In this document: one piece after another, positions 57,232 through 57,370 of the stretch
How positions within the stretch are numbered: position 1 is the stretch's first letter
Layout: each line of letters starts with the position of its first letter
Origin: Escherichia phage vB_ECOLIGBLB0003
Length of the DNA: 64,000 bases
Sequence record: PV654517
Strand: one strand, 5' to 3'
The notes under the pieces: model-generated
What the model saw: the letters and a program-made list of their open reading frames with translations, nothing else
The model's database searches: none
Told to the model about the DNA's origin: nothing
Program-made: the position numbers and the translations under genes

Positions 57232-57327
57232 AATTTCCTCATTAATTGAACATTGGAGCGATGCGTTTCAGAAGAGTAGCAGCACCTTTGGCGAATTATC
57301 CATTTTATTCTCCAAGTTGTTTTCTGT

Positions 57328-57370
57328 ATCAGTAGTTGATATTGATATAGTACCATAATCAACTACTGAT
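57328..57370 (-). promoter_or_regulatory. perfect 13-bp inverted repeat bracketing a promoter -10-like block
   Basis: ATCAGTAGTTGAT (57328-57340) and ATCAACTACTGAT (57358-57370) around TATAGTACC; left half is the block shared by the repeated promoter family; no GTTTAC at -35 here. Confidence 0.5.

Follow-up and report, generated by a model that had tools for sequence, protein, structure and literature searches.

In phage T4, hairpins with an internal promoter hide the ribosome-binding sites of genes e, 49 and I-TevI in read-through RNA; the promoters concerned are late promoters. A related arrangement, the promoter-early stem-loop (PeSL) cassette, was described in phages RB49 and phi1 by Arbiol et al. 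(2010; PMC2839356). PeSL stem-loops lie mostly between the -35 and -10 elements or over the -10, one of them cut expression of a downstream reporter as strongly as a strong terminator, and the cassettes, of ~100 bp and recurring along the genome beside small variable genes, were proposed to be recombination patches that shuffle small genes (PMC2839356). The same authors noted AT-richer analogues on T4 early promoters in T-even phages, which they did not consider PeSL homologues; among them, in the description of Repoila et al. (1994) that PMC2839356 gives, are PeSL-like elements at the T-even internal-protein (IP) loci, with T4 early promoters and weaker, AT-rich stem-loops of variable size. 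Here we analysed 64,000 nucleotides of Escherichia phage vB_ECOLIGBLB0003 (record PV654517; hereafter the window), in which a perfect 13-bp inverted repeat surrounds a -10-like sequence between the genes motB and cef and is followed by a mini-open reading frame (mini-ORF). The initial annotation had considered an operator for a dimeric protein, a cruciform-prone site or a leader-peptide attenuator. We find that the repeat is almost certainly the stem of a hairpin wrapped round a T4-type early promoter.

The hairpin and promoter between motB and cef

The window belongs to a Tequatrovirus (T4-like phage): the 2 kb around the repeat are 94-96% identical to Shigella phage CT01, T6, RB32 and many others, and the minus-strand gene order is that of T4 (gene 39, 39.1, 39.2, goF, cef, motB, a motB paralogue, motB.2, dexA). 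The repeat lies in the 169-nt gap from motB to cef and is read on the minus strand; the T4 sequence there is nearly the same. As initially annotated, its arms, ATCAGTAGTTGAT (57328-57340) and ATCAACTACTGAT (57358-57370), are exact 13-bp reverse complements, 17 nt apart, with TGgTACTAT between them. The palindrome runs past these 13 bp, with 20-nt arms of 85% complementarity about a 3-nt centre, and 18/20 positions pair. The predicted fold is an 18-pair hairpin composed of 13 bp, a 2x2 internal loop, 5 bp and a 3-nt loop, with an energy of -20.2 kcal/mol as RNA (z -6.4; 0/200 shuffles as stable) and -11.5 kcal/mol as DNA (z -5.9). The arms are 9/13 A+T and contain no G or C tracts, and the stem is followed by ACAGAAAACAAC. 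A consensus terminator scan of 56900-58100 returned no terminator-like site, the hairpin having no U-tract, and an Rfam scan of 56900-57900 (E up to 1) returned no match.

Taken alone, such a repeat is only marginally improbable. Dinucleotide shuffles of the 64-kb window gave an expectation of 0.115 perfect 13-bp inverted repeats (loop <=40 nt) per window, with at least one in 8.5% of shuffles. The real window holds three, two of them inside minus-strand ORFs (31298-31357, loop 34 nt, in ORF 30765-31418; 44269-44315, loop 21 nt, in ORF 44138-44356). The significance of the motB-cef repeat therefore rests on its position and on comparison with other phages.

Read along the minus strand, the region consists of an A/T tract, ATATAC, ATCAGTAGTTGAT, TA, TGgTACTAT, ATCAAT, ATCAACTACTGAT, 14 nt, GGAG, 6 nt and ATG (Table 1). 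T4 early promoters have been described as a succession of UP, -35, TGn and -10 elements (PMC2988021), with an A/T-rich upstream tract (also in PMC1524935), GTTTAC at -36 to -31 and the -10 at -12 to -7 (PMC1524935). The motB-cef region has an A/T-rich, UP-like tract and a TAnnnT -10 at -12 to -7 preceded by TGn, and its TGgTACTAT is the very sequence annotated as -10 in the T4 ndd-region record X75802. We infer a +1 at 57340 from the position of the -10 and because the promoter annotated in X75802 stops at the first base of ATCAACTACTGAT, an A. The T4 numbering then gives the positions of the two arms listed in Table 1 and places the symmetry centre of the hairpin at -9, inside the -10 element. 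The -35 hexamer GTTTAC had been reported missing; the exact hexamer is indeed absent, but a degenerate ATATAC takes its place, and one base further downstream TATACA matches TTGACA at 4/6 positions with a 17-bp spacer. The -35 of orthologous cef promoters is likewise degenerate (GTATAC in IME08, ATGTAC in HX01, GTGTAC in IT22). A middle (MotA-box) or late promoter was also considered and rejected, the sequence containing neither a TGCTT box nor TATAAATA. A search of a paper library for mapped T4 start sites or 3' ends found none.

The promoter has close relatives. Exact copies of the downstream-arm 13-mer lie at 46092 and 49721, in near-identical promoters TGGTACTATACAACTATCAACTACTGATAC; three promoters of the window share TGGTACTATAcAACTATCAACTACTGATAC, and the downstream-arm block is also found in T4 and RB69 promoters. 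Only at motB-cef is the block mirrored, which bears out the initial annotation on this point; its reading of the promoter context was correct too. The ~100 bp of promoter and 5' leader share 82-87% identity with the region of the e.8 promoter in RB3 and RB69. Both sister promoters (-35 at 46140 and 49769) and RB69 e.8 carry the same A/T-rich tract upstream, then GTTTACA, an unrelated 17-nt spacer ending in TGG, and TACTATACAACTATCAACTACTGATAC. More generally, T4 early promoters of the ndd/e.8 type are near-identical to the motB-cef promoter from TGGTACTAT through ATCAACTACTGATAC to the ribosome-binding site GGAGAATAAAATG and have the same A/T tract, but their -35 hexamer (-36 to -31), annotated in X75802 together with the -10, is GTTTAC and their spacers are unrelated, so that a mirrored arm is absent and hairpins are small or do not form.

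In its organisation, the motB-cef element resembles a PeSL cassette. The stem-loop lies within and overlaps the promoter boxes, here with the -10 at its tip, and the element takes up the space from the upstream stop codon (57401-57403) to GGAG (57313-57310) and ATG (57303). The stem-loop forms part of a ~100-bp cassette, with three near-identical cores in the window, and stands beside a small variable gene that is present or absent in relatives. It differs in that PeSL stems pair a G tract with a C tract (GGGG...CCCC) whereas this stem is AT-rich, and in that PeSL promoters follow the plain sigma-70 consensus whereas this one is of the T4 early type. Furthermore, the gene lost here was removed by a microhomology deletion inside the gene and not by PeSL-to-PeSL recombination, and a reduction of upstream transcription was measured for one RB49/phi1 stem-loop while the motB-cef element is known from its sequence. 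With an AT-rich stem devoid of G/C tracts, we class it as PeSL-like and not as a PeSL. The elements at the IP loci answer to the same description as the motB-cef element, although the account of them in PMC2839356 concerns IP loci. An intrinsic terminator would share with it a stable intergenic hairpin downstream of a gene, and the counterpart in the most distant contig collected (L021) does have a U-tract; the motB-cef hairpin has none, and only 4 G-C pairs in its 13-bp stem. As at T4 e, 49 and I-TevI, the promoter lies inside the hairpin, so that only upstream-initiated RNA would fold. Unlike at e and 49, the stem ends at 57328, 14 nt before GGAG, and the ribosome-binding site is not sequestered.

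Hairpins upstream of cef in other genera and at other early promoters

Regions upstream of cef were gathered from IMG/VR, metagenomes and GenBank phages. In other genera a promoter is found directly before cef, and nearly all of these promoters carry a hairpin, with arms unrelated in sequence (Table 1). A hairpin that coincides with or adjoins the -10 was seen in Mosigvirus, Dhakavirus, Kanagawavirus, Karamvirus, Moonvirus, Gaprivervirus and a Klebsiella phage, and in most of these other genera its stem stops no more than a few bases from +1. Folding gave z <= -3 in 9/13 representatives, the exceptions being HX01, IT22, CF1 and Mineola. The motB-cef hairpin of the window is analogous to these hairpins and not alignable with them.

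Covariation was examined with 17 distinct promoters, aligned without gaps in a common register (pairs i + j = -23). Eight of the 14 pairs change on both sides, and 78.6% of cells pair, compared with 32-48% when the partners are slid. The covariation score was 0.297, as against 0.02-0.14 for slid partners, and 0/500 shuffles reached the observed values. A compensatory G-C to U-A change distinguishes two Mosigvirus contigs, about 30-50 nt upstream of cef (GGTCTAT/ATAGACC in L010 and TGTCTAT/ATAGACA in L045). In a further Mosigvirus contig (L047), a single change breaks a hairpin pair.

Within Tequatrovirus, sampled from GenBank phages, a 55-nt stretch of the region is the same in 433 of 497 records. 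Three stem changes were found among six variant records: two A-to-G substitutions, one producing G.U (5' arm) and the other U.G (3' arm), and an A to T, so that 2/3 give G.U pairs on the sense strand. A flank-anchored pattern search of IMG/VR for arm variants returned only five Tequatrovirus contigs, all previously collected.

We located the early promoters of the window by pattern (GTTTAC-like hexamer, spacer, TGnTAnnnT), which gave 12 matches, all on the minus strand. Perfect repeats of 7-13 bp enclose the -10 hexamer in 5/12, compared with 4.3% at random positions and 4.8% at -10-like hexamers (binomial p about 9e-5), an enrichment of about tenfold. The five repeat arms all differ (ATCAGTAGTTGAT, CTGTTCCTC, GGTAGAG, TCCTTTGT and GGTACAGG). 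When the promoters were folded from -36 to +45, 7/12 formed hairpins of -15 to -24 kcal/mol whose loop or tip contained the -10, and the hairpin centres ranged from -20 to -4. At three promoters (-7 at 59039, 49249 and 11532) the 3' arm holds the ribosome-binding site of the next gene; there, read-through RNA should hide the site and internally started RNA should not. The hairpins concerned lie on the minus strand at 58995-59068, 49200-49278 and 11485-11561, and the sites are GAGG (motB.2), GGAGGAA and AAGGAG. Hairpins of 8-12 bp with the -10 at the tip were also seen at 28291-28371, 14655-14735 and 11090-11170 (minus strand), with the unrelated arms GGGTAGTAGTG, GGTAGAGTTGTG and GGTACAGG.

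Canonical terminators, G+C-rich and with T-runs, are found at about 46160-46200 and ahead of the promoters with -7 at 29074 and 11532. They stop 28-31 nt short of the -35 of an early promoter in each case, and the two promoters without an internal hairpin are among these three. An internal hairpin was scored at 0/3 promoters with an upstream canonical terminator versus 6/9 without one, which is in the expected direction on numbers too small to weigh. A small hairpin motif in the spacer between -35 and -10, CCACAAGGA(T/CC)GTGG, occurs in the window at 54230-54259 and 49740-49769, and at 290-340 in the cef promoter of the Jiaodavirus Mineola, a Klebsiella phage (contig L059).

The mini-ORF downstream of the hairpin and the neighbouring genes

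The mini-ORF, its GGAG and its start and stop codons are all present as initially described. We hold it to be, with little room for doubt, the decaying scar of a deleted 89-aa gene, without a designed role. The intergenic query matches many relatives in two pieces, the gap measuring 377 nt there and 169 nt here. In RB51 the extra DNA is the annotated 89-aa gene RB51ncORF009c, which runs from the same GGAGAATAAAATG to a TAA just before the cef ribosome-binding site and is likewise preceded by cttGGAGaataaaATG. Alignment of the window, T4 and RB51 showed that the window and T4 are without 208 nt between ATGGAAAA and ATGTAAAA, with the junction within 57295-57303 and two 8-nt near-repeats as endpoints. 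As 208 cannot be divided by three, the surviving start codon is followed by a shifted frame of 10 codons and a stop; the original stop codon, TAA 57242-57244, lies immediately ahead of the cef ribosome-binding site.

The 89-aa protein belongs to phrog_3720 (E 2.4e-46). Its gene is intact (>=95% identity) in 261 phage records and in about half of the related genomes, and homologues of ~42% identity are found in 140 Klebsiella T4-like phages. The intact protein varies by just one or two residues, unlike the stump peptides, which are 4, 8, 11 or 12 aa long (MEIR, MNNSLKVR, MENSLKVLILF in T4, MENLLKVLLLF, MENLPKVLLLF, MENLPKVLLLFF, MENLPKVLPLF, MENLPKVLSLF, and MDNSPKVLLLF in the window). The deletion junction (57295-57303; contigs L001, L008, L037 and L043) falls in a short A-run of variable length, giving stumps of 4, 8, 11 or 12 codons. 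As the ribosome-binding site has been kept, the mini-ORF is probably still translated. The motB-cef promoter is predicted to have driven the 89-aa gene too originally; it would now serve cef as its first intact gene, and goF as well.

Upstream, a sequence scan gave motB its own strong, near-consensus promoter (TTTACA-17-TATAAT at 57965-57937). A second MotB-like ORF (57969-58508, 179 aa) lies in tandem upstream of motB, and its C-terminus resembles that of MotB. The tandem ORF of RB51 is annotated "similar to motB and RB32ORF010c", RB32ORF010c itself appears among the features that the RB14 match covers, and T4 has at this place motB.1, of a different size. An 86-aa ORF at the 39.1 position (56146-56406) starts with MKYINRSIAALVLVVSLVGC, a putative lipoprotein signal peptide that includes a lipobox. 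The large subunit of the topoisomerase (gene 39) is one 606-aa ORF (54259-56079); in T4 this subunit is split between genes 39 and 60, and the ORF of the window is presumably the unsplit form. A 44-aa ORF starting with TTG and a 29-aa plus-strand ORF overlap the repeat site and were taken as chance ORFs.

Table 1. Features of the motB-cef junction of the window, and hairpins upstream of cef in other phages (hairpins given as 5' arm-loop-3' arm)
Feature	Position	Strand	Evidence or sequence
motB, MotB-like DNA-binding protein, 163 aa	57401..57892	minus	ORF; phrog_1671 MotB-like transcriptional regulator, E 4.5e-76; motB annotated in relatives
motB stop codon TAA	57401-57403	minus	ORF
A/T-rich, UP-element-like tract AGTTTAAAATTTTTTCATAAAACT, about -60 to -37	57377..57400	minus	sequence
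Degenerate -35 hexamer ATATAC, -36 to -31	57371..57376	minus	GTTTAC match 4/6
Upstream arm ATCAGTAGTTGAT, fills spacer, -30 to -18	57358..57370	minus	sister spacers unrelated
Extended -10 TGgTACTAT at hairpin tip, TACTAT at -12 to -7	57347..57355	minus	sequence, fold
Downstream arm ATCAACTACTGAT, inferred +1 to +13 of transcript	57328..57340	minus	promoter-family block
Shine-Dalgarno GGAG of former 89-aa gene, now of mini-ORF	57310..57313	minus	14 nt 3' of hairpin, outside it
Mini-ORF MDNSPKVLLLF, ATG 57303, stop 57268-57270	57268..57303	minus	GGAG 6 nt upstream of ATG
Retained 3' end of deleted gene, original frame ...FAKGAATLLKRIAPMFN to TAA 57242-57244	57242..57294	minus	alignment
cef (modifier of suppressor tRNAs)	57013..57231, start 57231	minus	phrog_1354, E 3.7e-38; cef annotated in relatives
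HX01 (Mosigvirus) hairpin			GGTCTATG-ATAC-TATAGACC
IME08 (Dhakavirus) hairpin			TGGTAGGGTAGTG-ATAT-TATTACCCTATCA; -35 GTATAC
Kosakonia phage 305 (Kanagawavirus) hairpin			GGTGTAGG..CATG-TTAT-TATG..CCTACACC
Klebsiella phage kv_tblp2 hairpin			GGTAGGAGCATG-ATAC-TATGTTCCTACC
CC31 and myPSH1140 (Karamvirus) hairpin			AGGGCTATG-ATAC-TATAGCCCT
CF1 (Moonvirus) hairpin			GGCTATG-ATAC-TATAGCC
IT22 (Roskildevirus) hairpin			weak
VR7 (Gaprivervirus)	L060 295-320		9-bp hairpin upstream of cef; no -35/-10 recognisable by eye
Mineola (Jiaodavirus)			small spacer hairpin only
L021 (most distant contig)	1415-1445		true terminator AAAAGAGG-tttacaa-GACCTCTTTT + ATTTTG; GTTTACA in loop

Proposed action of the hairpin and competing explanations

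Since the inferred +1 is the first base of the 3' arm, RNA started at the motB-cef promoter would contain only that arm and could not form the hairpin. RNA arriving from upstream, for instance from the motB promoter, would carry both arms and fold into the hairpin of -20 kcal/mol, in the stretch from the motB stop codon to the following ribosome-binding site. We propose that the hairpin marks and insulates such read-through RNA, either by attenuation or pausing or as a barrier to processing and 3'-exonuclease decay. The downstream genes would then be decoupled from upstream transcription and expressed mainly from their own promoter. To this explanation as a whole, a PeSL-like promoter hairpin that insulates read-through RNA, together with a deletion scar, we assign a probability of roughly 0.55. 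Support for insulation at the RNA level is indirect: it comes from the PeSL experiment, from the L021 version, which is a genuine terminator, and from the trend for promoters behind canonical terminators to lack an internal hairpin. In addition, the hairpins are placed variably with respect to the promoter boxes, which speaks against a precise influence on the binding of polymerase. For a hairpin without a U-tract, termination, RNA processing, a decay barrier and an effect in DNA are all possible modes of action.

Several observations weigh against this explanation. A scan with the plain sigma-70 consensus left the motB-cef promoter below threshold, and its -35 is degenerate; that it fires, and where, is read from sequence. 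Attenuation is extrapolated from one tested PeSL of a different phage group; here the arms are AT-rich in place of the typical PeSL G/C tracts, the missing U-tract means that the hairpin is not a canonical terminator, and the uncovered ribosome-binding site means that classical T4 sequestration does not apply. Near-invariance within Tequatrovirus leaves selection on this particular stem undemonstrated, and the A-to-T variant, found in RB18, breaks the second pair from the base of the stem. The sequences used for covariation are related, and some were chosen because they fold in the common register; moreover, the symmetry centre lies at -9 here and at -11.5 in the orthologues, 2.5 nt apart. Finally, sense hairpins were more stable than antisense ones in 14/17 cases (Wilcoxon p 0.005), but most of this signal, an excess of G.U pairs on the sense strand, stems from the TGn/TAT consensus pair (TG with TA at the tip), and without it 14 G.T face 9 A.C. 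Being largely driven by the consensus, this excess does not separate action in RNA from action in DNA.

A competing explanation is an action in DNA, which takes up the cruciform of the initial annotation: a cruciform or single-strand hairpin on the -10 would alter how polymerase opens or leaves the promoter, as in a supercoiling-dependent promoter or in a shut-off of early promoters as the state of the phage DNA changes. The symmetry centre mostly falls in or next to the -10, the DNA fold is far better than that of shuffled sequences, the G.T and A.C near-pairs show no clear asymmetry once the consensus-driven pair is removed, and the shut-off of T4 early promoters has been described as unresolved (PMC2988021). 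One precise effect on polymerase is, however, hard to fit to hairpin centres that vary as widely as they do in the window, to the L021 hairpin placed over the -35, or to the five positional classes of the published cassettes (PMC2839356). G.U pairs, moreover, are present in several hairpins and would count as mismatches on one of the two strands of a cruciform, and the stems are short and AT-rich. The DNA of T-even phages also carries modified cytosines, which we also count against extrusion-based action. We therefore regard this account as unlikely at motB-cef, and its extension, -10-centred hairpins as a general, selected DNA-level feature of Tevenvirinae early promoters, as more doubtful still. 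Were that extension true, an extruded or protein-stabilised hairpin would present or hide the -10, linking early-promoter activity to the topology of the injected genome or to proteins bound to it, and would contribute to the still unexplained shut-off. As unlikely as the DNA-level account at motB-cef is a repeat without function, left by mutation, for example by a templated strand switch that copied the transcript start into the spacer, and persisting because the region is young. A perfect 13-bp repeat is not very rare in shuffled windows, two others lie inside genes of this one, the 433 identical records imply little time for decay, the register differs from that of the orthologues, and the 3' half of the promoter seems to have been exchanged for that of the e.8/ndd type, in which case the 5' arm would have had to arise in one step. 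Against this stand the hairpin found around a promoter at the same intergenic position, with compensatory changes, in most other genera sampled, the roughly tenfold enrichment of -10-enclosing repeats at early promoters of the window, and a palindrome that exceeds 13 bp.

The two other functions first attributed to the locus fare worse than either of these. An operator, with a dimeric protein of the phage or the host covering the -10 to repress this promoter alone, has in its favour a perfect palindrome centred on the -10 and spanning -30 to +13, a classical operator geometry, as well as adjoining genes for DNA-binding MotB-like proteins. Yet this is the sole palindromic copy in 64 kb, its half-site is the conserved transcript start of a promoter family, other early promoters of the window have different palindromes, and the orthologues keep the pairing, through compensatory changes, and not the sequence. 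MotB itself is reported to bind various DNAs with no defined site, and loss of motB left early and middle RNA levels unchanged (PMC6070864); that paper contains nothing on the motB-cef promoter. We consider an operator very improbable. A leader peptide or upstream ORF that controls cef by its translation we find scarcely credible, even though the inherited ribosome-binding site and start codon are good. The peptide is read from a 208-nt deletion stump and varies freely in length and sequence, an intact 89-aa gene takes its place in about half of the related genomes, and the hairpin lies upstream of the ORF. The terminator scan found no terminator-like hairpin between the mini-ORF and cef, and no terminator/anti-terminator pair after the mini-ORF.

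What had been annotated as an operator plus a leader peptide thus becomes a promoter-in-hairpin cassette, of a kind known in T4-like phages, followed by a pseudogene stump. The element is an unusually perfect example of this already described kind. Since a very strong, perfectly paired example occurs in T4 itself, it offers a handy test case. More generally, though modestly, the early promoters wrapped in hairpins with covarying arms, in the window and at the motB-cef junction of most genera sampled, argue that the design is under selection well beyond RB49 and phi1, from which it got its name.

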